Source: Myxococcota bacterium
GTDB taxonomy: Bacteria > Myxococcota > XYA12-FULL-58-9 > JALHOP01
Length of the DNA stretch: 60,264 bases
Assembly (NCBI GenBank): GCA_041288095.1
Contig: JBGGMJ010000062.1
Coordinates: forward strand, 1 to 60,264
Direction of reading: 5' to 3'
Positions 326-59,976 of this stretch are shown in pieces. The first letter of the stretch is position 1. Every line of letters starts with the position of its first letter. A program made the position numbers and the translations under genes. The notes under the pieces were generated by a model, which ran no database searches, was not told the origin of the DNA, and saw only the letters and a list, made by a program, of their open reading frames with translations.

Positions 326-1282
326 ATGAAGCCCCTCCCCATGTTGCGACGTGTCGTCGACTTTCTAAGGCAACCCGCGGTCTGGCGCTACGTCGTCGGC
401 CCGCTGCCGTTCCTCATCATGCTCTCCGCGCTCGTCGGCAAGCGTTTCACCTTCGAGCACGCAGTCGTCCCGGGCGTGATGGCGGTGCTCTATTTCCTGC
501 CGTTCACGCGCCGCGCTTACCCGTATCTCTTCCCGTTCTTTTTCTTCTGGGCGACCTACGACACGTTGCGGGTCTTCACCCCGATCTTCCACAACCTGCA
601 TCCGCCGCTGGTCGCGGGGCCGTATCTCGTCGAGAAATTCCTCTTCGGCATTCCGGCCGCCGCCGGCCGTATCACCCTGAATGAATTCTTCGCGACGCAC
701 ACGAGCACCTTCGTGGACCTGCTCGCGGCCTTCGCCTACGCCGCTTACTTCTACGAGCCGTTCATCTTCGCGTTCTACCTGCTCGCCAAAGACCGTCCGC
801 TATTGCGGCGCTACGGTCTCGCCTTCTTGGTGACCAACTACCTTGGTTTCATCACGTATTACACGCTGCCAGCGGCGCCTCCCTGGTACGTCGAGCTCTA
901 CGGCTTGGGCGCGGCGGACCTCGCGACTCCTCCGAATCCCGCGCGCCTTGCCGCCGTCGACGAGTTACTCGGCGTCACGTATTTTCACGACCTGTACTCG
1001 AAGTCGGCGAACGTGTTCGGGGCGCTGCCGTCGTTGCACGCCGCCTTCCCGCTCTTGGTCTGGCTGTACGCGCGTAAGGCAGTGCGGCCGATCTACCACT
1101 GGCCGCTCTTCGCGTACTGGCTCTTGGTCTGCTTCTCGGCCGTGTACCTGCGCCATCACTACGTCATCGACGTCGCGCTGGGCTCGCTCTATGCGGGCTT
1201 TGCCTACTGGCTCATCGAGCGCATCGCCAAAGCTTGGGGCTTCGTTACTTCTTCTGCAGAAAGCTCGTCGCAGCCGTCGTGA
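326..1282 (+). CDS. PAP2-superfamily membrane protein, AUR1/inositol-phosphorylceramide-synthase-like
   Basis: Multiple TM segments. Motifs PAAPPWY, GALPSLHAA and HHYVID match the AUR1-type PAP2 group. Confidence 0.8.
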   Translation: MKPLPMLRRVVDFLRQPAVWRYVVGPLPFLIMLSALVGKRFTFEHAVVPGVMAVLYFLPFTRRAYPYLFPFFFFWATYDTLRVFTPIFHNLHPPLVAGPYLVEKFLFGIPAAAGRITLNEFFATHTSTFVDLLAAFAYAAYFYEPFIFAFYLLAKDRPLLRRYGLAFLVTNYLGFITYYTLPAAPPWYVELYGLGAADLATPPNPARLAAVDELLGVTYFHDLYSKSANVFGALPSLHAAFPLLVWLYARKAVRPIYHWPLFAYWLLVCFSAVYLRHHYVIDVALGSLYAGFAYWLIERIAKAWGFVTSSAESSSQPS

Positions 1283-2774
1283 ACGCGAGCAGGCCGGTGC
1301 GCATGGTGTTCACGGCGTCCGGCAGGAAGTCGTTGGTGTGGGACACGGGCGGCGGCAAGCCCGCGGCCTGACGGCGATCGAGCTCCGCCTGAGTCGACGC
1401 CCCGACGAAGAAGAACAACGTCGGGATCGAGCGGTCGTCCTTGCCGAAGCGCGGAAAGTCTTCGCCCGCCATGATGCGCGGCATTTCACGGATGGTGATC
1501 TTCTCGCCGGCGAGCTGTTGCTGCCAGACCGTGGTGAGCCGAGTGTGCAGAGCGGCGTCGTTGATGACCGCTGGATACGTGGGCTCGGCCTTGGTGACCG
1601 TCGGTTCCTTGGGGGCGCCGACCGCCACGGCCACGCCTTTGGCGACGTTCGTGATGTTGTCGACCAGGACCTTTTGCACCGGGTCCGCGAACGAACGCAC
1701 GGTCAGCTTGAGCTCCGCGCTGTCGGGAATGATGTTGCGCGCGGTGCCGGCGCGGATCTGACCGATGGTGATCAGGGCGGGCTCGCCCGGAGTCACCTTG
1801 CGCGAGACGATGTCGTGCGTCTGACCGATGAAGTTCCCCGCCATGGCCACCGGGTCGACGGTCGCCTGCGGCGTCGAGCCGTGGCCGCCGCGCCCGTGCA
1901 AGACGACGTCGAGTGAATCGACCGAGGCCATCATGGCGCCGGCGCGCGTGGCGATGACGTTGGGCGTGGCGGGGCCGTAGCAATGCAACGCGATAGCGGC
2001 GTCGGGCTTTCCGAAGCTTTCGTAAAGTCCGCTTTCCATCATGGCCTTGGCGCCGCTCATGGCTTCTTCGGCGGGTTGCGCGATGAGCATCAAGGTTCCG
2101 CTCCAGCGGTCTTTGAGCTGCATCATGATGTCGGCGAAGCCGAGCAGATTCGTGGTGTGCACGTCGTGGCCGCAGGCGTGCATGACGCCGACCTCGGTGC
2201 CGTCCGGTTGCGTCGCGCGCTTGGTGCTCGCATAGGGGACGTTGGTCTTCTCGGTGATCGGCAGCGCGTCCATGTCAGCGCGCACGAGCAGGGTGGGGCC
2301 TTCGCCGTTCTTCAAGATCGCGACCGCGCTCTGCAGCTCCTTGCCGTCGCTCCACTTGCCGAAGTTTTCGGTGACCTCGTAGCCAAGCTCGCGCAGGCGC
2401 TTGCCGACGATCTCGCGCGTCTTGACCTCTTGGCCCGCGAGCTCGGGGTTTTGGTGAAAGTGTTTGTATTGCTCGAAGAGCGCCGGCAGTCGCGGCTCGA
2501 TGAGTGCCTTGATCTCCGCTACCGGCACGGGCGCGGCGAACGCCGCATCCGCGCCCGCCATGGCGGCGCTTGCGAGCGGTGCCTCGGGCCAGCTGCTGAT
2601 CGGACGCTTGAAAGCCGGGCCCGTGCAGTTGCACAAGGTGTGCCCCGAGCCGTGGTCGAAGGTGTCGTCAGGGGAGACGTCATCACAGCGCAGGGTGCTG
2701 GCGCGAGCGGTGGACGTTGTGGGCTCGCCCGCGGACGCTGTCGTGCTAGGGTTACGACGGATCGAATCGAACAT
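1245..2774 (-). CDS. M20D amidohydrolase with a ~85-aa low-complexity N-terminal extension
   Basis: Motifs HQNPEL, RADMDALP, HACGHD, QPAEE, GRGGHGS and GEDF. Confidence 0.85.
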   Translation of the reverse strand: MFDSIRRNPSTTASAGEPTTSTARASTLRCDDVSPDDTFDHGSGHTLCNCTGPAFKRPISSWPEAPLASAAMAGADAAFAAPVPVAEIKALIEPRLPALFEQYKHFHQNPELAGQEVKTREIVGKRLRELGYEVTENFGKWSDGKELQSAVAILKNGEGPTLLVRADMDALPITEKTNVPYASTKRATQPDGTEVGVMHACGHDVHTTNLLGFADIMMQLKDRWSGTLMLIAQPAEEAMSGAKAMMESGLYESFGKPDAAIALHCYGPATPNVIATRAGAMMASVDSLDVVLHGRGGHGSTPQATVDPVAMAGNFIGQTHDIVSRKVTPGEPALITIGQIRAGTARNIIPDSAELKLTVRSFADPVQKVLVDNITNVAKGVAVAVGAPKEPTVTKAEPTYPAVINDAALHTRLTTVWQQQLAGEKITIREMPRIMAGEDFPRFGKDDRSIPTLFFFVGASTQAELDRRQAAGLPPPVSHTNDFLPDAVNTMRTGLLAFTTAATSFLQKK

Positions 2775-2801
2775 GACCGCACCTTTTCTGGGTTGCTCGC
2801 A

Positions 2802-2828
2802 TCATCGGACGGACCAGCCTCGTGTTGC
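2802..2828 (-). promoter_or_regulatory. sigma28/FliA-like promoter candidate for the amidohydrolase
   Basis: The minus strand reads GCAAC-N14-TCCGATGA, 27 nt before ATG 2774. CGTCAC lies immediately upstream of the -35. Confidence 0.45.
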
Positions 2829-2839
2829 GTGACGAGGGG

Positions 2840-3568: not shown

Positions 3569-3605
3569 TTGCGGGCACCAATCGGTTCGTGACAGCGTAC
3601 TGCCC

Positions 3606-4190: not shown

Positions 4191-4357
4191 AACGCTATGT
4201 CGTTGCCGCGCTCTTGCTGCTCGGCGCCTGCCGTCACGGCAACCCGGAAAAGATGAGCATCAAGGCGGCGCGCACGAGTCGCTTCGCCGAGCCCTGGGGG
4301 GCCGCCAAGACGGAACCGGCACCCGAAGCGGCCCCGGCGCCACCCACCGAACCTTAG
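4187..4357 (+). CDS. small lipoprotein (56 aa)
   Basis: MKRYVVAALLLLGAC lipobox. ATG 4187 overlaps the upstream TGA. Confidence 0.6.
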   Translation: MKRYVVAALLLLGACRHGNPEKMSIKAARTSRFAEPWGAAKTEPAPEAAPAPPTEP

Positions 4358-6359: not shown

Positions 6360-6414
6360 ATTTTCCGATGTAGCGCTCCAACGAAGCGCTACGCAATGCT
6401 AAGGTGCCGGCGCG

Positions 6415-7023
6415 ATGATCACCGAGGCGCAGGTCGCCGAGCTCTACACCCGCTATGGCCACGCCATCTTCGTGCGGTGCTTGAAGCTCGTGGGCAACGA
6501 GGACGAGGCCCGCGATCTCACCCAGGAGACATTTTTCCAGTTTTTCCGCTCGCGTGGCCGTTTCGAGGGCCGTTCGTCGCCGTTCACATTTCTCTACCGT
6601 ATTGCGACTAACGTATCTGTGGACAGGTTGAGACGACGCAAAACCGCCGGAGATCAGCTTTCGACCAGCGTATTGGCCGAAACGCCCGGTTCGAGCTTGG
6701 CAAGAGAAGCCGAGCGAAAAATGTCGTCCGAACGCGATCCGGCAACATTTGACACGATCCAGACCCTGGCGAGGTTGACGACCGGCCTCGACGACGAAAC
6801 TTTGACTATTGCAGTCATGAGCCATGTCGATGGGCTCACGCAGGACGAAATCGCGGAAGCGCTCGATCTGTCGCGACGCACCATCGGCAAGAAGCTCAAG
6901 CGATTCCTCGAGCACACACGCGAACGCGCGGGGATAGAGAAGGTGGAGTGGCCGTTGAGTGGGGGAGCTGGCGGAGCGGGGCCGGAAGACGAGCCGCGAG
7001 AGGGGCGCAAAGCCCATGGCTGA
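6415..7023 (+). CDS. ECF RNA polymerase sigma factor
   Basis: Region 2 (ARDLTQETF, FTFLYRIATN) and region 4 (DGLTQDEIAEALDLSRRTI). Confidence 0.88.
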   Translation: MITEAQVAELYTRYGHAIFVRCLKLVGNEDEARDLTQETFFQFFRSRGRFEGRSSPFTFLYRIATNVSVDRLRRRKTAGDQLSTSVLAETPGSSLAREAERKMSSERDPATFDTIQTLARLTTGLDDETLTIAVMSHVDGLTQDEIAEALDLSRRTIGKKLKRFLEHTRERAGIEKVEWPLSGGAGGAGPEDEPREGRKAHG

Positions 7024-8527
7024 GATGACCACGGGACTCACGACCACCCCGGTCTCGGACGTCATGCTGGCGCGTTACGTCGCCGGCGACCTCTCGGGCG
7101 AGCAGCTCGCGCGGGTCGAGCGGGCCATCGGCGAAACACCGGGGCTCGCCGAGCGTCTCGAGCGTATGAGGAGCGAGCGTGCCGAGTTTCTCGCGAGCGC
7201 TCCACCGCATCAGTTCGCGCACAAGATGGTGACGCGCCTCACCGTCGAGCGGCCGGCGCAGCCCAAGTGGCAGATCTGGTGGCTCTTGCCGCCGGTCACC
7301 GTCGCCACCGCCTTGCTCGTGGGCGTCGTTTATCAGCGCGCGCTGGGCCCACAGTCGCTGTCGCGCCCGGCGGTTACGACAGATGAAGCGTATCAGCTCC
7401 CCGAGGACGCGAAGCCGATCGCCGCGGCGCCCGGCGCCGACGCGGCAGCTCCCGATCTGCGACGCGAGGCGGACGTCGTCGAAAAACCGGCCGAGGCCAA
7501 AGCCGAAGCACGCGATCCTGCAACCGCTAAAGCGAACACACTGGCGACGCGCGCCCCGCCCAAGAACAAGGGTGCTGGTGGTGGCGGTGGCGGACTCGCC
7601 AACGCCGACGCCGACAAGACGAGCGCGCCGCGCCGCGAGGACCGCGAGCACGCGCGCAAGAAGGACGCGCCCCTGGGCGAGCTTGCCGCCGATGGCATCA
7701 GCCAAGGCGCCTACGGTGCCGGCCGTGGCGCGGGCGAGGGCGCCGCGACGGGGAAGAGCGGTTATGCGCAGCCACCTCCCGCGAAGCCCGTGCCGGTGCA
7801 ACCCGAGTCGCCTCCCGTCTGGGCCGCGCCGCCGCCGCCCGCGCCGCAACCAGCTCCAAGCGAGCGTCGTAGCGCGAGCCCGCCCGCCGCGAGCAGCACG
7901 GTCGAGAGTGAGAGCCGGGACCGCGAGGCCAACGCCGCCACCAAGACTCCGGCGCAGCGCGCGCCCGAGCCGCGACCCGAGCCCAGCAGTGCCGGCCCCT
8001 CGGCGGACGCCGCTTCGCCGCCACCGGCGAAGGTGATGAAAGACGAGGCGCCGAAGGCCGATGAGAAGGGGCGCGCGCGTGCTTCCGAATCGGCGAAAGC
8101 GGCGAGTAGCCCCGCCGACGACGGTGGCGATGAGGTTCCGGCGACCAGCGTCAGCATCAACCGCGACGTCGGTGGCCGCCCGCGCGCCTTGAGCTCCGGC
8201 GACGTCGTGCCGAGCGCCACGTTGCTGAAAGTCGTCGCGCAGGGCGGCCGTTACATTACGGTGATCGGCGTCCGACGTGACGGTGTGCCGCACGTGTACG
8301 GCCAGGCGGAGTCGCCCACGGGGCAGCCGGTGACCGTCCAGGTGCGACTGCGCCCCGCGAGCTCCCGCGTCTCCGAAGCATTGTTCGTCGTCGTCGGCGA
8401 CGCGCCGATGCCCAGTGGCAAGGCGCAGGTGAGCAGTGGCAAGGATGCGGCGCAGCTGCCGCTGCGTCTCACCGTCGCTGGCGCGCAACGGCGCTACGTA
8501 GTGATTATGTCCGCTTCAGCGGACTGA
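7016..8527 (+). CDS. putative membrane anti-sigma factor with a long low-complexity extracytoplasmic region
   Basis: Overlaps the ECF stop. SDVMLARYVAGDL anti-sigma-like N-terminus, one TM (WWLLPPVTVATALLVGVVY), a P/A/E-rich linker and a compact C-terminal domain. Confidence 0.65.
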   Translation: MAEMTTGLTTTPVSDVMLARYVAGDLSGEQLARVERAIGETPGLAERLERMRSERAEFLASAPPHQFAHKMVTRLTVERPAQPKWQIWWLLPPVTVATALLVGVVYQRALGPQSLSRPAVTTDEAYQLPEDAKPIAAAPGADAAAPDLRREADVVEKPAEAKAEARDPATAKANTLATRAPPKNKGAGGGGGGLANADADKTSAPRREDREHARKKDAPLGELAADGISQGAYGAGRGAGEGAATGKSGYAQPPPAKPVPVQPESPPVWAAPPPPAPQPAPSERRSASPPAASSTVESESRDREANAATKTPAQRAPEPRPEPSSAGPSADAASPPPAKVMKDEAPKADEKGRARASESAKAASSPADDGGDEVPATSVSINRDVGGRPRALSSGDVVPSATLLKVVAQGGRYITVIGVRRDGVPHVYGQAESPTGQPVTVQVRLRPASSRVSEALFVVVGDAPMPSGKAQVSSGKDAAQLPLRLTVAGAQRRYVVIMSASAD

Positions 8528-8728: not shown

Positions 8729-8733
8729 GGAAC

Positions 8734-9436: not shown

Positions 9437-9940
<504 letters not shown>

Positions 9941-18834: not shown

Positions 18835-18900
18835 CATAAATGTCGGTGTCGATGCTGGCAACGCCCTAGCGATCCTTTGCGAAAACGGGGATTTGCCGTT

Positions 18901-26534: not shown

Positions 26535-27254
26535 GTGGAAATGCAGGTCACCCAGGATGCGATCTTCGCGGGACGGCTGCGCCTCTGGCAGCCGGCGCGC
26601 GGCGCGGGCTACCGCTTCAATCTCGATCCGATCCTACTCGCGGGCTTCGCGCGGCCGGCTGCGCACGTGCTCGAGCTCGGCGCGGGCTGCGGCGTCCTCG
26701 GGCTCGCCTTGTTGCACCTCGGGAAAGCCCGCCGCCTCACCGCCGTGGAGATTCAGCCGGAGATGGCGGAGCTGGTGGCGCGTAATGCCCGCGAAAACGG
26801 ACTCGAAGAAAGGGTCACGGTCCTCGCGGGAGATCTGCGCGGGCTCGCGCTACCGGCGGCTGATCACGTCGTGTTCAATCCTCCGTACTTTCGCGCCGGA
26901 GCCGGACGTGGGGCGCCGAACGACGCCCGCGACGTGGCTCGGCACGAGCGCCACGGCGGGTTGGCCGATTTCGTGGAACGCGCACGGTCGTGTCTTGGGC
27001 CCCTGGGGTTCGCGAGCGCCGTCGTCCCGATCGAGCGCGCGGCGGAGCTCACCGGGGCATGGAGCGGTCATGGGGGAGCGGTCCTCCGGCGGCGGAGCGT
27101 TTGCTCGCGCGCCGGCGATGCGCCGCGCCACCTTCTCTTCGAGGGCGGCATGAGCGCAGGCGCGACGGTCGAGGAGCCGGAGCTCGTCGTGCACCGCGAT
27201 GGCGTACGCGACTTCACCGACGAAGTCGCGGCCTGGGTCGAAGGAACGCCTTAG
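26535..27254 (+). CDS. tRNA1(Val) A37 N6-methyltransferase-like (TrmN6/YfiC family)
   Basis: GYRFNLDPILLA, LELGAGCG, FNPPYF and ARHE motifs. Confidence 0.8.
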   Translation: MEMQVTQDAIFAGRLRLWQPARGAGYRFNLDPILLAGFARPAAHVLELGAGCGVLGLALLHLGKARRLTAVEIQPEMAELVARNARENGLEERVTVLAGDLRGLALPAADHVVFNPPYFRAGAGRGAPNDARDVARHERHGGLADFVERARSCLGPLGFASAVVPIERAAELTGAWSGHGGAVLRRRSVCSRAGDAPRHLLFEGGMSAGATVEEPELVVHRDGVRDFTDEVAAWVEGTP

Positions 27255-28033
27255 CTAGCGGCCGGAGCCTGCGCCGGCTGCTGCGAGAGCTGCCGCACTT
27301 CCTGCTTGAAGGCTTCGATGGTCGCCTGTGCCTCGCGTTGCTCGACCTCTTCGGCCGCTCGCGAAGCCAGCGCCTTGGCGGCGTTCACGGCCGACCGTCC
27401 GAACAAGAAAGTGCCGAGCGCGGCCGCCGCGCCGACGCCGGCGGCGATCCAAGTCTGCGGCTCCGACAGCGCGGTGCCCGCGCTCATCAGGGCCACGCCG
27501 ACCGTCGAGGTCGCGATGGCCAAGGCCGCGCCGGTCACACCCGCCGAAACGAGAGTCGCCGCTGACTTGATGCCGACGCGCAGCTCCGAGGCCGCGTTGA
27601 GCAGCCACTGCGGCGCCGCGAGGCCAAGGCCGAGTCGCGGCACTTGCAGGGCGTTGCCGACCGCCTGGCGCAGGGTGTGAAGCGCATAGACGCCGGAGCC
27701 CGTGGCTAGCGCGGCGGTGACGCCGGTTGCCAACGTCAGGTTCGCTGGGAACTGCGTCAGGAGCCCCGCATCGATGGCGCCAGTGCCGAGGGCGTAGGCA
27801 ATCGCGGCGCTCGAGCCGGCGATGACGGCCGGGGCGATGATGTTGGCCACCGCCTGGCGTGAGCGGGTCGCGACCTCCGCGGCCGGCGGCTGCACCGGAA
27901 TCTGGACCGGCAGCTGCAGCTTCTGATCCGTGCGCAGGCCCAGCTCCAGGAGCGTGGCGCGCGGCACCTCGACCTGCTTGGTGATGAACTGCTGCTGCGG
28001 AGCGGACGGAGCGGTGGCGATTGCGTTGGACAT
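27251..28033 (-). CDS. hypothetical protein with Ala/Gly-rich hydrophobic helices and a C-terminal coiled coil
   Basis: Q/P-rich N-terminus without a signal peptide, about 4 hydrophobic segments, and typical high-GC codon usage. Confidence 0.7.
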   Translation of the reverse strand: MSNAIATAPSAPQQQFITKQVEVPRATLLELGLRTDQKLQLPVQIPVQPPAAEVATRSRQAVANIIAPAVIAGSSAAIAYALGTGAIDAGLLTQFPANLTLATGVTAALATGSGVYALHTLRQAVGNALQVPRLGLGLAAPQWLLNAASELRVGIKSAATLVSAGVTGAALAIATSTVGVALMSAGTALSEPQTWIAAGVGAAAALGTFLFGRSAVNAAKALASRAAEEVEQREAQATIEAFKQEVRQLSQQPAQAPAAS

Positions 28034-28041: not shown

Positions 28042-28068
28042 TCATCGGCGGGCCATTTTCGGGGTTGT
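28042..28068 (-). promoter_or_regulatory. sigma28/FliA-like promoter candidate
   Basis: The minus strand reads ACAAC-N14-GCCGATGA, 8 nt before ATG 28033. Confidence 0.5.
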
Positions 28069-35437: not shown

Positions 35438-35516
35438 TGGTGCCCCCGACAGGAATCGAACCTGTGGCTTACAGGGTTTAGGAAACCCCAGCTCTATCCA
35501 TCTGAGCTACGGGGGC
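35438..35516 (-). tRNA. tRNA-Arg (anticodon CCT)
   Basis: GCCCCCG/CGGGGGC acceptor stem with encoded CCA, D arm GCTC-AGATGGATA-GAGC, anticodon loop TTCCTAA and T arm ACAGG-TTCGATT-CCTGT. Confidence 0.93.
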
Positions 35517-35607: not shown

Positions 35608-35615
35608 GCCGATAA
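35608..35615 (+). promoter_or_regulatory. sigma28/FliA -10 element
   Basis: Perfect GCCGATAA 7 nt before GTG 35623. The -35 match is poor. CGTCAC lies at 35589. Confidence 0.55.
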
Positions 35616-49102: not shown

Positions 49103-49105
49103 AGC

Positions 49106-51797: not shown

Positions 51798-51835
51798 GAT
51801 GGTCGGCGCCAGTCTCGGACGCAAGCAGGGAGTGT

Positions 51836-51862
51836 GCACGTCGGCGCGCGGCCTGCCGATAA
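51836..51862 (+). promoter_or_regulatory. sigma28/FliA-like promoter
   Basis: GCACG-N14-GCCGATAA (perfect -10), 8 nt before ATG 51871. Confidence 0.55.
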
Positions 51863-51870
51863 GGCTGGCG

Positions 51871-52173
51871 ATGGTCAGGCTCCAGTCGAAGCTTCCCGCG
51901 CAAGTGCCCGCGCCTGTTCCCCCGACCGCGGCGACCCCGCCGACCCGGGTGCCGGGCCTACCGAGTGCTTCGCAGCTCGTGGGGATGCAGATCGTCGCGA
52001 CCGTTGGCGGCATCGCGGGCGGAATCGCGGCTTGCGTGCTCGCGCAGGGTGCAGGCTGGGAAGGCGTTGCCCCGTACCTTTTGGGGGCCGGAGTGGCCGT
52101 CGGCACCAACCTCTTGCCGGGCATTGGCCTACTGACGGTACAAGTAGGGCGCCGCCTGGTTGGCCGCGGCTAA
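51871..52173 (+). CDS. small two-TM protein with a Pro/Thr-rich N-terminus, antisense between pstA and pstB
   Basis: Fills the pstA-pstB gap. MVRLQSKLPAQVPAPVPPTAATPP is followed by two Gly-rich hydrophobic helices. Has its own promoter motif. Confidence 0.6.
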   Translation: MVRLQSKLPAQVPAPVPPTAATPPTRVPGLPSASQLVGMQIVATVGGIAGGIAACVLAQGAGWEGVAPYLLGAGVAVGTNLLPGIGLLTVQVGRRLVGRG

Positions 52174-52175
52174 CC

Positions 52176-53021
52176 TCAGGCCCAGGGCTCCCGCTGAAAG
52201 CGCCGCTGCAGGCCCCCAGCCCACAGGGTCGCGGCGACGTGAACCATCACGACCACCGCGACGGCGGCGCCCGCCAGCTCGGCGCTGCTCTTGCCCCCCG
52301 TCACCACCGCCTCCATCGCGGCGGCGGGCAGAGTGGGCCACGCATCTTCGCTGTTCATGACGAGGCCGAGCATGACGAGCGGTGCCGTGGCTCCGAACGT
52401 CCGCGCCAAGGTCGTAAGCACGCCGCCGGCGATGCCGCGAATGGCGAGCGGTAGGATGTGATCGCGGACGGTCTGCAATCGCGTTGCGCCAAGCGCGTAA
52501 GAAGCGGCCCGCATCGCGTCCGGTACCTGCAGCATCGCGTCACGGGTCGCGAGCATGATGCGGGGAATAGCGAGGATCGAGAGGGTGAGAGTGGCGGCGA
52601 GGAAGCCCGGCACCTGCTGCAGACCGCTCGTCACCAAGCGCATGCCGACGATACCGAAGACGACCGAGGGCAAGGACGCCCAGCTCTGCACGGCACCGAA
52701 GATCAGGCGCGTGAGGCGCGGGCGGTTCATGGCCTCGCTCACGTAAATGGCGGCGCCGATGCCGATGGCGACCGAGCCGAAGGTCGCGACCAGCGAGATC
52801 ACGATGCTGCCGGTGAACGCGGCGATGAATGCATCCGAGGCGTCGTCGCGGCGGGCAAGCGTGCCGCCGATGTCCGCGAGGCCCTGGCCGATCGCCCAGA
52901 TGACGACCGCGAGCAGCGCGAGCAGGGTGGCGCCGCCGACCGCGCCGCAGGCGGCCAGCACGATGTTGCCGAGACGACGGCGCTGGCCCCGGGCGGCGGT
53001 GCTCGAGAGCGCGTCGCTCAT
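52176..53021 (-). CDS. pstA: phosphate ABC permease PstA-like (divergent)
   Basis: ASLPSVVFG, the RAASYALGATR EAA loop and ARTFGATAPL. Confidence 0.75.
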   Translation of the reverse strand: MSDALSSTAARGQRRRLGNIVLAACGAVGGATLLALLAVVIWAIGQGLADIGGTLARRDDASDAFIAAFTGSIVISLVATFGSVAIGIGAAIYVSEAMNRPRLTRLIFGAVQSWASLPSVVFGIVGMRLVTSGLQQVPGFLAATLTLSILAIPRIMLATRDAMLQVPDAMRAASYALGATRLQTVRDHILPLAIRGIAGGVLTTLARTFGATAPLVMLGLVMNSEDAWPTLPAAAMEAVVTGGKSSAELAGAAVAVVVMVHVAATLWAGGLQRRFQREPWA

Positions 53022-53779
53022 GTCCGCTCTCGCGGATAAAGACGCATGGCCAAGCGATGCAAGACGACGGTGGCGGCAACGAGGACACCACCGACCACGA
53101 AGATATCGGGATGGCTCAAGGGCGGGCCTCGCCCAAGCGCCGCGCGCACGGGCTCGGCGGCGAGGGTCGTTACCTCGGTCGAGGCGGCCACGGCGACGAC
53201 CACGCTCTCGCCGATGGCGCGCACGAACGTGAGCAGCACGGCGCTGGCCATGGCGCGTGCGGACGCGGGCAGCAAGATGTGCAGCCAAGCTTCGAGCCGA
53301 GTCGCGCCGAGGGCGAGGGCCGCGTCGCGCATGCCCTCTGGCGCATTGCGCAGCGCCGTGTCGAAGACGCGCGCGACGAAGGGAGCGAGCAACAGGCCCA
53401 AGGTGAGCGCGGGGATCTGCGACCAGCGAACGCCGCGCTGTACGGTGATGGCGAGATACGCGAAGACGATGGGCGGCATGGTGGCGAACAAGGCGAGCCA
53501 CGGGCGGATCGCGAGGCGCAGCGCTGGTGAGGCGAGCTCTCGCAGGGTGACCGCCATCGTGAGGCCCAAGGGCAGGGCCACCGCCAGGGCCAGGAAGCTT
53601 ACCGTTAGCGTGCCGCGGCACAGCGCCCAGACGTCGACTGAGACGTGGTGGTCACCGAACGCGAAACCGATGCTTTCTCCGGCCACTACCGCGACGACGG
53701 CGACGGCAAGCCCTACGGCCAAAGCCGCGCATCCCGCGAGAACAGCGGTCGGCAGGATTTCGGACCGCCTCGAGCTCAT
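53018..53779 (-). CDS. pstC: phosphate ABC permease PstC-like (short, divergent)
   Basis: GTL..S..A...ALPLG, RDAALALGATR and RAIGES motifs. ATGA coupling to pstA. Confidence 0.7.
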   Translation of the reverse strand: MSSRRSEILPTAVLAGCAALAVGLAVAVVAVVAGESIGFAFGDHHVSVDVWALCRGTLTVSFLALAVALPLGLTMAVTLRELASPALRLAIRPWLALFATMPPIVFAYLAITVQRGVRWSQIPALTLGLLLAPFVARVFDTALRNAPEGMRDAALALGATRLEAWLHILLPASARAMASAVLLTFVRAIGESVVVAVAASTEVTTLAAEPVRAALGRGPPLSHPDIFVVGGVLVAATVVLHRLAMRLYPRERT

Positions 53780-53844
53780 GCGGCTGGTCTCATGCCACGA
53801 AGTGGGTGGCAAACACCCGCGGCTTTAAGTAGGCTACGCCGCCA

Positions 53845-54249
53845 ATGGTCGAGAAACGTCGCATTCGCGTGGTGAGTGCCGCTATCTGCAAGGATGGCAA
53901 GTATCTCATCACCCAGCGGACCGAGCGCGCGGTGTTGCCGCTCAAGTGGGAGTTCCCCGGCGGCAAGGTCGAAGAAGGCGAATACGAGGATGCGGCGCTG
54001 CGGCGTGAGCTGCGCGAGCGCCTCGCAATTACGCCCGACGTTGGCGCCCTCATCTCCACGACCATCCACGAGTACGATGACTACGTGGTCGAGCTGAAGC
54101 TCTACGAGTGCAGCTTGGGCCCGCTGGCCCCGCGCAAGGGCTCGGTGCGCGACATGCAGTGGGTCCGCTCCGGCGACTTCGACAAGTTCGACTTCACGCC
54201 CGCCGATCAAGAGTCGATGGACGTCCTGCTCTTCGGCGAAAAGCATTAG
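53845..54249 (+). CDS. MutT/NUDIX hydrolase
   Basis: WEFPGGKVEEGE.....RRELRERL (Nudix box with EE changed to ER) and a PAD motif. Confidence 0.8.
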   Translation: MVEKRRIRVVSAAICKDGKYLITQRTERAVLPLKWEFPGGKVEEGEYEDAALRRELRERLAITPDVGALISTTIHEYDDYVVELKLYECSLGPLAPRKGSVRDMQWVRSGDFDKFDFTPADQESMDVLLFGEKH

Positions 54250-54252
54250 CCG

Positions 54253-55095
54253 TTACACATGAGCGAGGATCCAATCGCCGACCCGAGCGATCAGCTCGGC
54301 GCGATTGGTCTCGTTCAAGATCTCGTGGAACTCTCCGGTGCGCACGATGACGGTCTTGTCGGGACTGTCGAGCGCTTGCGCGAGGGCGGCGTTGGCCTGC
54401 GGTGAGGCGATGGGGTCGGCGTCGCTGTAGGCATAGAGCAGGGGCATGTCGAGACGGCGGAGCGCGCGAACACGCGCTTGGGCTTCGCGCGAGGCGCGGA
54501 AGTAGCCGGCCGTGACGGTCGAGTAGATCATCGGGTCGCGGCGGTAGGCGTCCACGATAGCGGTCTCATGCGACAGGCCCTCGGGGGGAATGCCCGAGGG
54601 TAAAGCGATGCGTGGGGCGAGGCGGGAGGCGAGGTGGCCGATGGCGAGCTTGATCTTCGGCACCGCGAAGGCGACCTCGAGAAACGGGTTGGAAAGGATC
54701 AAGCCGCGAATGTCCGGCTTCCTCGTGGCAACCCAGTCGAGAGCGATGAGGCCGCCGTTGCTGTGGGCGAGAACGAAGCGCGGCAACCCACGTCCGGCAT
54801 GCGCGGCGGTCATCGCCGCGAGGCCGGCGTCGGCGTCGGCGTGGTACTCGCTAAAGCGGTCGACGAAGCCGCGCTGACCGGCCGAACGTCCGTGCCCACG
54901 CAAGTCGACGGCGACCGTGTCGACGCCGCGCTCCGCAAGGGCGAGGCCGAGCTCACGATAGCGTTCGGCGTGCTCGGCGTAGCCGTGGATGACGAGGAGC
55001 GCGGCGCGTGGGTCGCCCAAAGGGGACCAACGCTGCGCCGCGAGCTGGGTGCCGTCGTCGGAGGTGAGGGTGAGCTGGGTGCGATTGGCGCTCAT
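54253..55095 (-). CDS. alpha/beta hydrolase, lysophospholipase/monoacylglycerol lipase-like
   Basis: IHGYAEH, DLRGHGRS, AHSNGG nucleophile elbow and FHEILNE. Confidence 0.88.
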   Translation of the reverse strand: MSANRTQLTLTSDDGTQLAAQRWSPLGDPRAALLVIHGYAEHAERYRELGLALAERGVDTVAVDLRGHGRSAGQRGFVDRFSEYHADADAGLAAMTAAHAGRGLPRFVLAHSNGGLIALDWVATRKPDIRGLILSNPFLEVAFAVPKIKLAIGHLASRLAPRIALPSGIPPEGLSHETAIVDAYRRDPMIYSTVTAGYFRASREAQARVRALRRLDMPLLYAYSDADPIASPQANAALAQALDSPDKTVIVRTGEFHEILNETNRAELIARVGDWILAHV

Positions 55096-56012
55096 CGCGC
55101 GAACAGATCATCGATCGAGGCCGCCAGCAAGTCGGCCCGTCGCTTGACCAAGAGGTTGTCGGGAGCGAGGTCCGCCTCGCCGGCATCGGCGGCTTTGATC
55201 TCCGCCAGGAGGCGCGCGAAGAGCTCACGGTTTTTGGCTTCGATGGCGTAGGCCTCGGCGTAGCGCAGCTTGGTCACGAGCACCTCGGGTGCGAGGCCCA
55301 AGGCCTTGTCGAAGTGCTCACGGGCGCGGGCGAGGTCGCCACCAGCGAAGCCCGGGACGCGCGCGAAAAAAGTGCCGAGCTCGCGGTCGGCCGCGGCGTG
55401 CTCTGTTTTGGGCGCAATCTCGATCACCCGCTGCATCGCGGCGACCAGACGGCCCCTATACATGAGCAGGGCCGTGAAGCCCTTGTCGACCCCATAGTGC
55501 GCGAGACTCGTGCCGTAGACCGCGAGCGCTTCCATCTTGTCGGCTTCTACGGACTTCACCGCTTCTTCGATGCTGACTCCGCGTTTCACCGCCGCCGAAA
55601 ACGCGGGGGAGCTCGCGAGCAGAGCGCGCTCGGCCGTATCGATGGCGCGCTCGAGAGCGTCGGCCCGCTGCGGCATGTCCGCTGGAGCGCGCACATGAAA
55701 ATCCGCAAGGGTGACGTAGGCGCGGGAGAGCGCGAGCAGCGGCTTCGGATCGTCCGGCCGCGATTCGGATAGGCGCAGCCAGCAGTCGATGGCGCGACCG
55801 AGCGCCGTGCGGTCGACGCGGCCCGCCCAGGCGGCACGGGCTTGGGCGTCGAGGTCCAGGGGTGCCCCGGCATCGGCTCCGGCGGTGTCGGCATCAGCGG
55901 CGGGCACGCCGGCGGTGGTCTCCGGCGAAGGTGAGGGCGGCGCCGGCACGGGGCCTGGGCTGCATCCGGCCGCTGCGAGCACGGCGATGGTTACGACGCG
56001 AAACGACCTCAT
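55092..56012 (-). CDS. TPR lipoprotein, TRAP TatT-component-like
   Basis: Lipobox AAAGC, PGFAGGDLARAREHFDKA and a helical-repeat composition. Confidence 0.6.
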   Translation of the reverse strand: MRSFRVVTIAVLAAAGCSPGPVPAPPSPSPETTAGVPAADADTAGADAGAPLDLDAQARAAWAGRVDRTALGRAIDCWLRLSESRPDDPKPLLALSRAYVTLADFHVRAPADMPQRADALERAIDTAERALLASSPAFSAAVKRGVSIEEAVKSVEADKMEALAVYGTSLAHYGVDKGFTALLMYRGRLVAAMQRVIEIAPKTEHAAADRELGTFFARVPGFAGGDLARAREHFDKALGLAPEVLVTKLRYAEAYAIEAKNRELFARLLAEIKAADAGEADLAPDNLLVKRRADLLAASIDDLFAR

Positions 56013-56070
56013 GGGCGTGCGAAAGCTAGCACGCACAAGAACTTAGCGCGACGCGAAAACGCGGGCGGGG

Positions 56071-57915
56071 TTACCCGTGGGCATGCTCGGCGATGTCGTA
56101 GACGTGCATGAGGCGGCGCGTCCGCACCACGCTGTGCTCGATGTCGACGATGAACTCGCCGGCGAGCGTGATGACCTCGAGCTGCAAGGAGCCCTCGGAG
56201 AGGATTGGACGCACCACCAGGTTCGCGTCGTCGAACAGCGTGTCGAGACCGCGACGCACGGTGGCGGCGCTCGGGTCGTGCTCGGCGAGCTGCGTCAGGT
56301 GGTCGGCGATCAGACGCTTCGCGCGGACCAGGGTCTTGCCTGGGTTACCGCCGTCGCGGGTGGTGAAGTCGAACTTCGCGGGCAAGCACAACGCCGGGCC
56401 CTCGAGGTAGCGCACGCATTTGCCGTCGAGCACGACTTCGAGGTGACCGTCTTCGACGGGTACTTGGTTGCGGCTCGTGGGGTCCTGCACGAGCGCGCGC
56501 AGGGTGACGCGACGGACGTCGCCGAAGCGGCGGTCGCCCATGACCTGAAAGGCGATGTCACCACGGTTGGCGAGGGAGGGAAGGGTGCGCGCGACGCCGG
56601 CGAAAGCGCTGGCGCTCTGCTCCTTGATAGCGGACAGCGAGGTCTCGAAGAGCTTGGCGCTGTCGGTGGGCGTCGCGGCTGCCAGGGGCTGATTCGTGAT
56701 CTTGCGGCGGATGGCTTCCTTCTCGATGTCGCCGATGACGCCGTCGACCAGCTTCGGCGCCGCCTTGCCGATGTGCGAGCGCACGCCTTCGAGGATGGCG
56801 CGCAGGCAATCTTCTGGCGAGGGCGACTTGTTGGTGACGAAGAACGGCGCCTTGGCGATGGCTCCGAGCATCAGGTCGCACGCTTGGTGCATGCCGATGG
56901 CGTTCGCGAGCCGCGAAGTCACCGACCAAACCATGCCGGAGTAAGCGAGGCTTCGCTTGTGCTCCTGCGTCAGGCTGGGATCGAGGCTGACGTCGTTGAC
57001 CAGTGTCCGCAGAGGGCCGAGCGTGCCCGAGGTCCCTTCCTTCTCCGCGAGGTACGCGCCGAGGTCTTCGCTGATGTTGGGGTTCTCGAAATGCAGCGCC
57101 GCGAAGAGGTCACCCACCGCCTCGTGGAAGGGCTTGCCCTCGCCGGTGGTGTCGCTGTTCACGCCAGGGGCGACGTGATCGAAATAGCCGTGGGCAAGCT
57201 CGTGGACGAGGATCTCCTTGCACGACACGAGGTGGAAGCGCCCCTCCGAGGTGCCGAAGACGTAGACGTTCGAGCCCGGGATATAGCCGGCGTTCTCCTC
57301 GCTCATGGCGTTGGCGATGATGCGCACGAGGCCGCTGTTGCTGGTGCTGTCGCGGTACACCGAAGGCAGGTCGATGCCGTAGCCCGCGAGGCGTCGCAGG
57401 AAGGTGTCGGCGGTGTGCAGCGCCTGCACCTGGTCGAAGCCGTCCTGTGTGACCTTGTTCTCGCCAGGCGCGAAGGGCTGCTGGTCCTTCACGGTCTTGA
57501 GCACCGACGAGCCGCTGACGTGCACCAGCTCGATCTTCAGGCCGTCGACGGACAGGCGCACTGTCCGCTGTAGCGACACCTGGGCGACCTTGCCTTGGCT
57601 CGTGAGCCGGTTTTCCTTCGCCCAAACCAGGAGGTTCCCAGGGTTTGTCTCTTGCGTCTCGGCGCCCGGGTTCTCGGCGGCGGCGCGACGTGATTCCGCC
57701 AGCCGCAGGTCGACCGCGGTCGTGGTCGACTTGTCGACGACGGCGGCGACGCTCGCGGGCGAGGCCGTCCGCTGTTTTGCCAGGCGGACGAACAAGTCCT
57801 CGAACCCCGACTTGCTACGGGGCCGACTGTTATCGACGGACGCCGCGGCCCCATCCGCTTTGACGGATGGGGCCTTTCGGCCTCGGGTTCCCGAGAGACG
57901 CGTATCGACTGCCAC
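56071..57915 (-). CDS. thermolysin-like (M4/M36) zinc metalloprotease, paralog 2
   Basis: ENAGY, HELAH, GEGKPFHEAVGD (third ligand Glu), LRTL and QEH motifs. AGGAAGG RBS before the GTG. Confidence 0.75.
   Translation of the reverse strand: MAVDTRLSGTRGRKAPSVKADGAAASVDNSRPRSKSGFEDLFVRLAKQRTASPASVAAVVDKSTTTAVDLRLAESRRAAAENPGAETQETNPGNLLVWAKENRLTSQGKVAQVSLQRTVRLSVDGLKIELVHVSGSSVLKTVKDQQPFAPGENKVTQDGFDQVQALHTADTFLRRLAGYGIDLPSVYRDSTSNSGLVRIIANAMSEENAGYIPGSNVYVFGTSEGRFHLVSCKEILVHELAHGYFDHVAPGVNSDTTGEGKPFHEAVGDLFAALHFENPNISEDLGAYLAEKEGTSGTLGPLRTLVNDVSLDPSLTQEHKRSLAYSGMVWSVTSRLANAIGMHQACDLMLGAIAKAPFFVTNKSPSPEDCLRAILEGVRSHIGKAAPKLVDGVIGDIEKEAIRRKITNQPLAAATPTDSAKLFETSLSAIKEQSASAFAGVARTLPSLANRGDIAFQVMGDRRFGDVRRVTLRALVQDPTSRNQVPVEDGHLEVVLDGKCVRYLEGPALCLPAKFDFTTRDGGNPGKTLVRAKRLIADHLTQLAEHDPSAATVRRGLDTLFDDANLVVRPILSEGSLQLEVITLAGEFIVDIEHSVVRTRRLMHVYDIAEHAHG
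57847..57874. other. perfect 11-bp hairpin in the 5' coding region of protease 2
   Basis: GGCCCCATCCG-CTTTGA-CGGATGGGGCC, followed by TTT on the + strand. Confidence 0.6.
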
Positions 57916-57963
57916 GCGGACTCGCCTTCCTACTGCAAGGGAGGAAACGCTCTGGTCGCTGCT

Positions 57964-59796
57964 TTAAGCCTTCTGCTTCTTCTCGGGGATCAAGTCGACG
58001 AACATGAGGCGTCGAGCTTCGACCTTGTCGCTCTGGTGGTCGTAGATGAATTGACCAGCGGGCGAGGTCAGCATGAGGTTGATCTTGCCCTTGTACATGA
58101 CCTCTTCGATCTCGAGCTCCGACTCGGCGAAGAAGCGCGCCTTGTTTGCCGAGAAGTGCTCCTTCAAGTGCTTGTTCTCGAGCTGGCTCTTGATGAACTT
58201 GTCGATGGCCTCGCGCGCCTTCTTGATGAGCTCCGCGCGATCACCAGGGATCGGCGTGAAGTCGAACGTGTAGCCGGCGTTCTCGATGATGCGGCGGCCG
58301 CTGCCGTCGAACGACGTGACGTCCTTGTCGGTGGCGACCATCGACATGAACCCGTCTTGCACCTTGTACTTCTTGCCGTCGGCCGGATTGATGGCGCGTA
58401 GCTGCATGATGAGCTTCTGCGATTGCAGCTTGGTCTCGGGGTTCTGCCAGGCGAGCTCGCCGACCGTGGTGATCTCGCAATCCTTACGCGTGCCCCAGAT
58501 GCCGCCGATGGTCTTAATGGCGTCTTCGGGGCTGCAGCCCGCGGCGTTGCCCGCAAGCCCGAGCGCAAGCTGAGTGGACTTGGCGTCGGCGTCCTGGCGC
58601 GGCGGCTCCTGCCAGTCGGCCTTGATCATCTCGCGCTTCACGCCTTCGTTCTTGATCGCTTGGATCATGAAATCGACGGTCGCGGCGTCCACCAAGCCCG
58701 GCAGCGCGTCGCGCATGCACTTGGCAACCGCGTCGAGGAAGTCCTTCGGCGAGGGTGACTTGCTGGTGAAGTAGAACCCGGTCTTGAGGGCGACGTGCAA
58801 CATGACGTCGCAAGCGCGCTCGAAGTTGCCGAGGCGCGTCCCGAGCTGCTGGGTGACGCGCCAGCCGAAGCCGCCGTAGGCCTCTCCGCGATCGTGGACT
58901 TCGTTGCCCGCCTGGCGCAGGGTCTTGTCGTTGTCGAGGTTGCGCAGGGGCTGACCCGGCTGGCCGAGAGCGGTGCCGAAGTCTTCCGAGAGGAAGGGGT
59001 TGCGCGCCATGAGCGACGCCGGGAAGTCGCCGAAGTAACCTTCGTGGATGGCGCCGCCTTCGCCCGAGAACATATCGGGGTTCTGCTTGTCGCCGCGGCT
59101 GTGACCGGTCTCGTGACGGGTGACGTCGTTGTCCGACGCCAAGTGCCAGCGGCCGTTGTTGGTGCCGTAGTTCAGGTCGTTGGCGGTCGGGCTGTACCAG
59201 GCGTTGAGATCGGTGCTCGAGTTCGCCTTGCTGCGGATGACGCCGTTGTTGCGCGGCGCGGCCCACAGCTTGTTGTTGTCGATGCCGACCTGTGAGTGCA
59301 GCCAGTTGGTGTAGACGCCGTCGGCGACGAGGTTCGCCTGATCGAAAGCGTCACGCGTCACCTTCGAGCCGTTCTCGAAGGGCTGCTGATTGTCGACGGT
59401 CTCGAGCTGGGTGATGCCGGTGACGTGGACCCACTGGGCGCGGACGCCGGCGGGGCTCAGGGTGACGCCCGGGAGCTTCACGATGCGGGTCTGACCCTGG
59501 CTCGTGTGGTTGTTCTCGCGCTGCCAGACGACGACGCTATCGGCGGCGACGGCACGGGGATTGTCGACCGCGGCGATCTCGGCCAGGGCGCGACCGAAGA
59601 AGGCTGCCTCGCCCAAGCTCTGGAAGGGCTGGGTGCGGGGGGCAAAAGCGACGGGACCGCTGGTGCGGACATTCGAGTCGGCGGCGGCGGGCTTCGCGGC
59701 GGCCTTGGCGGGCGCCGCTTTGGCGGGCGTTTCCCCGGAGCTGACGGCGGTCGAGCCTGTCGTCTTGATCTCTCCGCTGCCCTTGATGCTTTCCAT
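57964..59796 (-). CDS. thermolysin-like (M4/M36) zinc metalloprotease, paralog 1
   Basis: LNAWYSP, DVTRHETGH, GEGGAIHEG..GD, LRNL and EVHDRG motifs. GGAG RBS. Confidence 0.8.
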   Translation of the reverse strand: MESIKGSGEIKTTGSTAVSSGETPAKAAPAKAAAKPAAADSNVRTSGPVAFAPRTQPFQSLGEAAFFGRALAEIAAVDNPRAVAADSVVVWQRENNHTSQGQTRIVKLPGVTLSPAGVRAQWVHVTGITQLETVDNQQPFENGSKVTRDAFDQANLVADGVYTNWLHSQVGIDNNKLWAAPRNNGVIRSKANSSTDLNAWYSPTANDLNYGTNNGRWHLASDNDVTRHETGHSRGDKQNPDMFSGEGGAIHEGYFGDFPASLMARNPFLSEDFGTALGQPGQPLRNLDNDKTLRQAGNEVHDRGEAYGGFGWRVTQQLGTRLGNFERACDVMLHVALKTGFYFTSKSPSPKDFLDAVAKCMRDALPGLVDAATVDFMIQAIKNEGVKREMIKADWQEPPRQDADAKSTQLALGLAGNAAGCSPEDAIKTIGGIWGTRKDCEITTVGELAWQNPETKLQSQKLIMQLRAINPADGKKYKVQDGFMSMVATDKDVTSFDGSGRRIIENAGYTFDFTPIPGDRAELIKKAREAIDKFIKSQLENKHLKEHFSANKARFFAESELEIEEVMYKGKINLMLTSPAGQFIYDHQSDKVEARRLMFVDLIPEKKQKA

Positions 59797-59827
59797 TGCG
59801 TGCTCCGTGACGTGGTGTGGCCCGCGA

Positions 59828-59854
59828 TTATCGGCATCGGCGCGTCACGGTTTC
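59828..59854 (-). promoter_or_regulatory. sigma28/FliA-like promoter for the protease pair
   Basis: GAAAC-N14-GCCGATAA (perfect -10), 31 nt before ATG 59796. Overlapped by GCGTCAC-N12-GTGACGC (59842-59867). Confidence 0.6.
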
Positions 59855-59949
59855 GTTGCAGTGACGCTGATTTGCACGGTGATTGGTGGGCAGGGTGTCA
59901 GGGCCCGCCCGGGCATCTAGCCACGATCGAGATGTCGCAGCGATGGCGC

Positions 59950-59976
59950 GCAACCCAAGGGACTCGCGGCCGATAT
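59950..59976 (+). promoter_or_regulatory. divergent sigma28/FliA-like promoter
   Basis: GCAAC-N14-GCCGATAT. Confidence 0.45.

Follow-up and report, generated by a model that had tools for sequence, protein, structure and literature searches.

Among the closest described counterparts of the promoters reported here is the FliA/FlgM system of flagellar class 3 genes in Escherichia coli and Salmonella; the octamer GCCGATAA is the -10 consensus of sigma-28 (FliA). We analysed a window of 60,264 nucleotides, the whole of contig JBGGMJ010000062.1 (assembly GCA_041288095.1, here G000, contig C62), from a soil Myxococcota bacterium, in which this octamer and its variants stand before dispersed genes. 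An earlier note on the window had proposed that a sigma-28-like factor co-regulates signal-peptide-less proteins with disordered N-termini, exported by a T3SS (type III secretion system) or a flagellar-type apparatus. We describe the promoter class genome-wide, the FliA-like protein that probably reads it (sigma A), and p159, a small protein encoded directly before sigma A in a T3SS gene cluster.

The likeness to FliA/FlgM lies in the sigma family, in an identical -10, in a -35 pentamer 14 nt upstream (as in the flagellin promoters of sister species), in the late secreted subunits that are driven, here candidate ones, and in a small binding partner, here a predicted one, encoded beside the sigma gene. 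The differences are a -35 of GCAAC, sigma factors scoring 164-166 bits against a family cut-off of 189.6, a non-flagellar apparatus, and a p159 without detectable similarity to FlgM. The regulon is also about ten times the size of the flagellar class 3 regulon.

FliA-family sigmas that work without flagella are the chlamydial sigma-28 and WhiG of Streptomyces, and Chlamydia has a T3SS. Both have small regulons and canonical-like promoters, and neither, to our knowledge, is part of a T3SS gene cluster. Sigma factors linked to a T3SS include HrpL, whose gene lies within the T3SS cluster, and BtrS of Bordetella, an extracytoplasmic function (ECF) sigma.

HrpL of Pseudomonas syringae, Dickeya and Erwinia is described in two papers as an alternative sigma acting through one bipartite box on T3SS genes, effectors and some non-effectors (PMC3879358, PMC2957411). 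The present system is similar in its cluster-encoded sigma and in one promoter box on both T3SS genes and dispersed candidate substrates; unlike HrpL, which is an ECF sigma with another box, the sigma here is FliA-like and found in a soil Myxococcota, not in a plant pathogen. BtrS, as reported in PMC10732220, controls the T3SS and is antagonised by the T3SS-exported BtrA. We propose the same logic for sigma A and p159, whose binding is predicted from a complex model only.

In the predator Bdellovibrio bacteriovorus, TTAAG-N16-CCGATA was found on 92 of 140 attack-phase promoters, including those of proteases and many unknown genes, according to PMC3627812. There the flagellar FliA itself acts, on a canonical-like -35, whereas here a paralogue, encoded in a non-flagellar T3SS cluster, probably reads a new -35, and sites stand before about 370 genes. 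For Myxococcus xanthus, the excerpts available of PMC12075869 and PMC10849154 describe a needleless, non-flagellar T3SS* that is implicated in prey lysis and whose effectors are unidentified; its cluster is described there without needle, secretin or translocon, and these excerpts mention no sigma factor. The system described here differs from it in having needle-like C-termini and a cluster-encoded sigma, and we claim no predation role for this organism.

Our literature search found no paper tying a sigma factor to a myxobacterial T3SS, and searches for GCCGATAA with leaderless mRNAs and for Myxococcus FliA with T3SS returned nothing pertinent. What sets the present system apart is a probably paralogous reader with a new -35 box, a sigma gene built into a non-flagellar T3SS cluster, and about 370 promoters.

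Results

A dispersed promoter class with sigma-28 geometry

The assembly comprises 5.85 Mb in 212 contigs (66% G+C, 90% completeness). Genes were called with a crude in-house codon-usage caller (4972 genes covering 92% of the genome), on which every statement about genes and start codons rests. Of the 130 copies of GCCGATAA in the genome, intergenic DNA (8% of the total) holds 76, mostly directed at a nearby gene. Among 1680 octamers of the same composition it ranks first for intergenic copies (76 versus a mean of 11.3). The 76 intergenic sites have in common the hexamer cGCAAC, ending 14 nt upstream of the octamer.

A refined position weight matrix (PWM) was scored on 3757 upstream regions (546 kb), with shuffled regions as control. 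Its consensus is cGCAAC-N14-gcCGATAa, with A, T and A strongly conserved after CG. At 12 bits or more, 308 sites were found in the forward and 135 in the reverse direction, and 11 in shuffled regions. With a free spacer and a threshold of at least 14 bits, the spacer was N14 in 258 sites, N15 in 114, N13 in 8 and N16 in 5, while the shuffled control had no N13 site and two for each of the other three spacers; sites with spacers of 14 and 15 did not form distinct subclasses. Enrichment of the motif upstream of genes, one of the checks named in the earlier note, was found, as 374 genes carry such a site against about six sites in shuffled sequence. The motif that the note had picked out is a real, dispersed class of about 370 promoters with sigma-28 geometry, and we regard this as practically certain.

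The -35 pentamer of the class is GCAAC in 56 cases, ACAAC in 20, GCACC in 15 and GAAAC in 12, while TCAAG occurs twice and TAAAG not at all; the canonical sigma-28 -35 element, TAAA(G), is therefore retained in position (N14/N15) and not in sequence. Flagellin promoters of the sister species read T[AC]AAG-N14-NNCGATGA and that of the relative G005 reads TAAAG-N14-GTCGATGC, which for the four relatives together gives T[AC]AAG-N14-NNCGATG[AC]. Since these share the N14 spacing, GCAAC occupies the place of the flagellin T[AC]AAG with another sequence. Judged by its sequence, the class is a sigma-28-type promoter with the same -10 and -35 position and a different -35 pentamer. The boxes are conserved in the sister genomes, and the spacers vary.

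Octamer and called start codon are 5-12 nt apart at 46 sites, 13-19 nt at 12 and 20-45 nt at 135, a bimodal distribution. Counted without use of the gene calls, ATG is over-represented at +7, +8 and +9 from the octamer (15, 23 and 20 cases, versus about 5 per position elsewhere). We infer that transcription starts about 7 nt after the octamer, so that about 46 genes would be leaderless and most others would have short leaders. Such distances would suit mRNAs of two kinds, leaderless ones and ones whose leader can accommodate a ribosome-binding site. A look-up of sequencing runs for window positions 52000-60264 returned five DNA runs from three studies, which contain all or part of this stretch, and no RNA run. 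We also considered that the octamers standing 7-8 nt before start codons are mere Shine-Dalgarno-like TAAGG sequences, and rejected this for the class because the ATG peak at +7 to +9 accompanies a conserved -35 box.

Two FliA-like sigma factors and a non-flagellar T3SS

The genome has 36 matches to the sigma-70 family and about 30 ECF-like sigma genes. A FliA-family sigma, which the earlier note had wanted looked for, is present in two forms: two proteins have FliA_WhiG as their best family at 163.7 and 166.1 bits, below the TIGR02479 cut-off of 189.6, and match the profile over positions 1-223 and 4-223 of 224, including the segment between regions 2 and 4. We call them sigma A (G000:C92:35188-36072) and sigma B (C127:21759-22571). 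With Pfam at E 1e-5, sigma A has both Sigma70_r2 and Sigma70_r4, and sigma B has r4 only. A third, canonical FliA (about 215 bits) is encoded beside FlhA and flagellins in the sister species G001-G003. The three sigma clades are 24-36% identical to one another, counted over rows with a correctly read frame. Region 4.2 is divergent in sigma A, and that of sigma B resembles the canonical clade.

For the comparison of 31 genomes we counted a strict pattern, GCAAC-N15-CCGATA, with the same pattern read backwards as control (0-7 per genome). The 22 genomes with clade A or B (clade C being the canonical one) have 1-101 matches (median 18.5) and the nine without have 0-8 (median 3). Within the 22, the four genomes of the genus have 74-101 and the other 18 have 1-36. 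Genomes with clade A only have 13-33 matches, and those with canonical FliA only have 1-8.

The type III export apparatus that had been predicted is present and is non-flagellar: SctV, SctN, SctRSTU, SctJ, SctQ and SctL were found. SctV scores 850.8 bits (cut-off 692), and FlhA on the same protein reaches 694.6 (below 772). SctQ is just over its cut-off (102.4 versus 100.8) and SctN just under (601.1 versus 604.75), and a SctJ-like lipoprotein of 277 aa scores 139.8, under 161.95 and far above FliF. SctR, S, T, U, L and O were detected as well, with Pfam matches to FliP, Bac_export_1, 2, 3 and FliH/SctL. A gene for a Kup-type potassium transporter (G000:C92:6713-8617) lies inside the T3SS row, between a FliK/SctP-like gene and sctQ.

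Flagellin_N and Flg_bb_rod were not found in G000, an assembly 90% complete. The sister species carry flagellins, FlhA, FliF-like proteins and canonical FliA (G001:C2:514000-546000, G002:C2 and G003:C59; loci L131-L133, L137-L139 and L157), none of which was found in G000. Since the sisters have flagellar genes and G000 shows none, either the genus is flagellated, or the G000 species lost these genes or the assembly missed them.

The sigma A cluster has the order 185-aa needle-like protein, tetratricopeptide-repeat (TPR) protein, p159, sigma A, 163-aa SctI-like protein and sctJ, and this row is intact in 7 of the 10 loci looked at. Twenty relatives have sigma A; in 14 of these, from seven families, its gene is 0.7-1.8 kb upstream of sctJ and on the same strand, and in five the two genes are on different contigs. 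Within the genus they are 12 kb apart, with an efflux operon between them. In G000 an outer-membrane efflux protein and three large neighbours (C92:24471-33560) separate sigma A from sctI-sctJ, which are adjacent to it in other families.

In 6 of the 10 loci a site scoring 13-20 bits stands at the head of the sigma A cluster. In G000, T3SS-linked sites score 18.2 bits each before the sigma A and sctI-sctJ operons, 20.6 before the gene after sctU and a TPR protein, and 19.6 and 21.7 before two of the needle-like genes. A distant family of the phylum has a like arrangement: in G029 (C57:163000-169000, L169) a sigma 45% identical to sigma A sits in a needle-like/TPR/sigma/SctI/SctJ cluster with a 19.8-bit site. 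The ancestral regulon may have been small and T3SS-specific, as G029 has only three strict pattern matches.

The 163-aa protein before sctJ has a weak SctI match (PF17001, E 0.008). The last 30 residues of the 185-aa protein are common to a small family of proteins of 294-402 aa (hhalign probability 86%), and the needle family PF09392 matches, below cut-off, the extreme C-termini of three proteins at E 3e-4 to 0.027. Needle-like C-termini occur in four proteins, three of which are behind sites, and a precomputed PF09392 match was present in 3 of 10 orthologues. Against the Protein Data Bank (PDB), a three-row C-terminal profile gave needle-protein chains as 6 of its 10 matches (E 0.003 to 1.1), and with a 13-row profile needle proteins surfaced only at E 0.067 and 5.1; a PDB sequence search with the whole 309-aa needle-like protein returned chance matches only. 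The 163-aa SctI-like protein was also tried as a carrier of the needle-like C-terminal motif and rejected (hhalign probability 0.9%).

A predicted partner of sigma A

No family match and no detectable similarity to FlgM were found for p159. Its C-terminal domain is conserved and its N-terminus is G/P/T/Q-rich. A modelled complex with sigma A scored 0.69 (best control 0.00). Among solved complexes 116 of 157 attain this score, and among mismatched pairs 2 of 215 do. At least 56% of contacts agree between runs, the pLDDT of the partner is 58 or more, and the contacts join sigma A residues 154-201 with p159 residues 70-151. The model supports binding of p159 to sigma A, and by analogy with FlgM and BtrA p159 may be an exported anti-sigma factor.

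Sigma B has its own neighbour of this kind. An 80-aa FlgM-like protein encoded beside it scores 31.3 with PF04316 (cut-off 25) and 29 with TIGR03824 (cut-off 40.75), and is kept in 3 of 3 related contigs and partly in G005. No site was found upstream of the sigma B gene.

Proteins of the regulon

We compared 368 regulon proteins with 2175 operon-head controls lacking a site. Hydrophobic N-termini were found in 37 of the 368 (10%) and in 703 of the controls (32%; p 5e-21). Residues 2-26 of proteins without a hydrophobic segment are higher in P, Q, S, A, T and N and lower in C, Y, F, K, H, E, D and L. The STPQN share of these residues is 0.305 versus 0.245 in controls (p 1.5e-20), and its excess over the protein's own interior is 0.077 versus 0.025 (p 1.3e-9), which makes it specific to the N-terminus. 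In the 27 leaderless cases, where promoter geometry fixes the start, the trend is the same (STPQN 0.342). Cys is about halved in regulon proteins longer than 150 aa. The idea that the regulon has unstructured N-termini and lacks secretion signals holds genome-wide in part: Sec/transmembrane-like hydrophobic N-termini are depleted and P/S/T/Q/A-rich ones enriched, but the 37 proteins have Sec or lipoprotein signals and some members are cytoplasmic-type enzymes.

Pfam was run on the 80 top-scoring members among the 257 regulon genes that lie outside the window and have at least 14 bits at fixed spacing. No family was found for 56 of these 80, compared with 8 of 50 for the window's other genes. 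Peptidases (S8, S9, trypsin-like and one M36-like), lipases, GH3, a phosphoesterase, an amylase-like enzyme and a serpin are among the members with a family, and in these the first domain often begins only at residue 70-110. Hydrolases of normally secreted families (S8, GH3, M4/M36-like, lipases) have no signal peptides and carry N-terminal extensions of 60-110 aa.

Paralogues of members are themselves members three times above expectation (67 of 293 links, versus a genome share of 7.5%). All copies of one four-member family of 589-710 aa are in the regulon (G000:C134:34941-37007, C79:35085-37217, C160:24059-25828 and C148:16507-18618); Atlas places this family among Myxococcota-only hypothetical proteins, with no known family.

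Sites and genes of the window

The positions given in the earlier note were confirmed for all six octamers: GCCGATAA at 35608 (+), 51855 (+) and 59828 (-), and variants at 28042 (-, GCCGATGA), 2802 (-, TCCGATGA) and 59969 (+, GCCGATAT). Its distances to the start codon were also correct (7 nt at 35608, GTG 35623; 8 nt at 51855, ATG 51871; 31 nt at 59828, ATG 59796); the distance is 8 nt at 28042 (ATG 28033) and 27 nt at 2802 (ATG 2774). As the note said, five of the six octamers have a pentamer exactly 14 nt upstream (GCACG, GAAAC, ACAAC, GCAAC and GCAAC). The octamer is not significant in the window alone, with 3 copies found versus 0.99 expected and at least 3 in 9 of 100 shuffles.

The PWM scores are 21.4 bits at 59828, 20.6 at 59969, 17.3 at 28042, 16.4 at 2802, 12.8 at 51855 (marginal) and 0.3 at 35608, so the by-eye search had caught the four best-scoring sites of the window, which belong to the genome-wide class. 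The site at 51855 has GCCGATAA and the GCACG pentamer in place and may belong to the class, but its marginal score makes the assignment doubtful. The site at 35608, before the FAH-like gene, has no pentamer 14 nt upstream, that is, no -35 box, and with its score it drops out of the class; here a Shine-Dalgarno-like TAAGG is a possible reading. Table 1 gives the coordinates.

Table 1. Promoter sites and associated genes in the window
Feature	Position	Strand	Details
M20 amidohydrolase, 509 aa	1245..2774	-	TIGR01891 277.7 bits over residues 103-461; Peptidase_M20
Promoter	2802..2828	-	-10 TCCGATGA 2802-2809; -35 GCAAC 2824-2828
Weak extra site	18856..18886	+	Spacer 15; -10 TGCGAAAA; 14.2 bits; 141 nt before sugar-transferase gene 19027-20400
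260-aa protein, accessory gene	27251..28033	-	A/P/Q/S-rich N-terminus, then hydrophobic stretches
Promoter	28042..28068	-	-10 GCCGATGA 28042-28049; -35 ACAAC 28064-28068
Octamer without -35 box, outside the class	35608..35615	+	GCCGATAA
Hydratase/FAH-like gene	35623-36630	+	Its octamer (35608) lacks a -35 box
Marginal site	51836..51862	+	-35 GCACG; -10 GCCGATAA
Weak 100-aa ORF	51871-52173	+	Coding score 10.2, lowest class; no family match
610-aa protein, putative M4/M36-like metalloprotease core from about residue 60-85	57964..59796	-	
Promoter	59828..59854	-	-10 GCCGATAA 59828-59835; 14-nt spacer; -35 GAAAC 59850-59854; precedes 610-aa gene
Divergent promoter	59950..59976	+	-35 GCAAC 59950-59954; 14-nt spacer; -10 GCCGATAT 59969-59976
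Leader with 16-codon mini-ORF (59993-60043), then lipoprotein-like gene (60053 or 60080) running off the window	59993..60264	+	

Both boxes of the 59828 promoter are kept in sister genomes with different flanks. The 610-aa protein behind it has an S/T/A/P/K-rich N-terminus and lacks a signal peptide or propeptide. It had no Pfam match at 1e-3, Peptidase_M4 reaching E 0.11 only, and an Atlas structure look-up gave Peptidase_M36 over residues 85-393 as a lead only; it is probably an M4/M36-like metalloprotease.

The boxes of the divergent 59969 promoter are identical in 4 of 4 genomes of the genus, and the spacer varies. The ATG that follows, at 59993, opens only the mini-ORF; the actual gene starts at 60053 or 60080 with a lipoprotein-type signal, in which LLAAFASAC resembles a lipobox. 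The stretch 59977-60100, which contains the mini-ORF and the sequence before the lipoprotein start, is nearly invariant in the four genomes of the genus. Rfam detected nothing in it, and in the whole window yielded one tRNA only. This stretch could be a regulatory leader peptide or RNA element.

The amidohydrolase at 1245..2774 has an N-terminal extension of about 100 aa, rich in S/T/A/P, and no signal peptide; one paralogue of it (C81:344-1834) likewise has a site. The counterpart of its promoter in G002 is GCAAC-N14-GCCGAAAA-N7-ATG. The 28042 promoter is also kept in G002, and its ATG follows the octamer by 8 nt, a distance that predicts a leaderless mRNA and falls inside the genome-wide +7 to +9 peak. 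No Pfam or NCBIfam match was found for the encoded 260-aa protein, and among five relatives searched DNA matches covering the gene came from G002 only.

Other features of the window were noted. The tRNA gene (35441-35516, minus strand, Rfam 58 bits) adjoins the octamer at 35608 on its upstream side. A 378-nt gap (51798-52175) in the minus-strand pstC-pstA-pstB-phoU row holds the 51855 site and the weak antisense ORF. In the region 6415-8527, an ECF sigma gene (6415-7023) and the start of a 503-aa gene without known family overlap, and the product of the latter may be the anti-sigma factor of the former; a 133-aa protein with sigma-70 region 4 only is encoded at 9539-9940. A 1119-aa protein (30050-33409) has two proprotein-convertase P-domains and a weak, sub-cut-off DUF4215 match, and PEGA-domain proteins are encoded at 3-299 and 33410-34201; we take these P-domain, PEGA and DUF4215 proteins to be typical Myxococcota surface-protein families.

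Discussion

We favour, with moderate confidence, a T3SS-associated regulon of the sigma-28 type, read by sigma A, as the explanation of the whole. Sigma A would transcribe the class, including its own operon and the sctI-sctJ operon, and p159 would hold sigma A in the manner of FlgM, coupling secretion to transcription. The regulon would be a T3SS-associated 'late' programme like that of HrpL and the hrp box or the flagellar class 3 genes, and its products would be mainly lineage-specific signal-less proteins, hydrolases with long N-terminal extensions and needle-like T3SS proteins. A FliA-family sigma very probably reads the class, and that it is sigma A specifically, not flagellar FliA, is moderately probable. 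That a large share of the products leave the cell via the T3SS is doubtful, and delivery into prey would be a further step of inference.

Several results, given here and below with the alternatives that they favour, weigh against this explanation. Three effector-signal rules known from Pseudomonas syringae work were applied to 237 regulon proteins and 1539 controls and are weakly enriched (odds ratios 1.3-1.5), with all three satisfied by 11 of the former and 28 of the latter. The regulon holds an adenosine deaminase, a class IV aminotransferase, a glutathione peroxidase and a homoserine dehydrogenase fusion; Sec or lipoprotein signals also occur among its products, including that of the gene behind 59969. 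Upstream of sctV, sctU and the sctRST-Q operon no site reached 10 bits, and the sites thus cover the apparatus only in part. The needle, SctI and SctJ matches are all below their curated cut-offs. The weak enrichment of the effector-signal rules speaks for an alternative in which the same promoters and a FliA-family sigma serve a lifestyle or differentiation programme of cytoplasmic or otherwise exported proteins, most of them not T3SS substrates; this is a serious possibility, if a less than even one. About 370 promoters exceed any T3SS effector repertoire that we know of. WhiG in Streptomyces and FliA in attack-phase Bdellovibrio are parallels, and the 92 of 140 attack-phase promoters under Bdellovibrio FliA include those of many non-flagellar genes (PMC3627812). 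The cytoplasmic-type enzymes and the Sec and lipoproteins of the regulon point the same way. Against such a programme stand the embedding of sigma A in the T3SS cluster in seven families, the needle-like and SctI-like genes directly behind sites, the N-terminus-specific P/S excess with halved Cys and 70% orphans, and the normally secreted hydrolase families with extended N-termini in place of signal peptides.

The remaining contrary points concern the reader. The link between sigma clade and motif count is a co-occurrence and not a test, since the genomes are related and not independent samples. G005 has 36 pattern matches, and clades B and C were found there but A was not; moreover, counts are highest in the genus that has A as well as B (74-101, versus 13-33 with A only), so sigma B, with its conserved FlgM-like neighbour, may read the motif too or instead. 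We consider this unlikely: in region 4.2 sigma B is close to canonical FliA, the reader of T[AC]AAG, no site was found upstream of its own gene, clade B was found in only 7 of 31 genomes, and A-only genomes keep their matches where genomes with neither clade have 0-8. An ECF (group 4) sigma, with a merely coincidental likeness of the -10 to sigma-28, is a very unlikely reader. AAC-N16-CGAT does fit the usual ECF promoter geometry, and one of the about 30 ECF-like genes (C53:12200-12784) lies two genes downstream of an 18.9-bit site, in a possible operon. Yet the -10 shows all eight bases of the sigma-28 consensus, A, T and A being strongly conserved behind CG, motif abundance tracks the FliA-like clades, sites head sigma A clusters in several families, and ECF regulons are usually small. 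Least credible is an ordinary flagellar FliA regulon whose flagellar genes and fliA are missing from the 90%-complete assembly; the canonical FliA, FlhA and flagellins of G001-G003 would allow it, but the flagellin promoters of these sisters have T[AC]AAG and not GCAAC, and genomes with clade A alone, where no canonical FliA was found, have more matches (13-33) than those with canonical FliA only (1-8).

A T3SS regulon read by sigma A would have consequences beyond this genome. The position of sigma A between a needle-like gene and sctI-sctJ in seven families suggests that sigma-28-type late-gene control was carried into a non-flagellar system and retargeted via a new -35, which bears on the origin of injectisomes from flagella. 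It would also be a case of large regulon growth, from strict counts of 0-8 where no such sigma was found, through 12-36 in most relatives with one, to 74-101 in the genus.

A bolder version is that Myxococcota have a basal non-flagellar T3SS that kept the flagellar sigma-28/anti-sigma checkpoint, in which export of p159 would free sigma A to act on about 370 promoters, and mostly orphan proteins and signal-less hydrolases would be exported through the T3SS against prey. We think this rather unlikely as a whole; if true, the promoter box would mark, across the genome, the substrates of T3SS*-like machines in myxobacteria. A box tied to a T3SS-cluster sigma would yield a testable list of candidate effectors for the myxobacterial T3SS* (PMC12075869).

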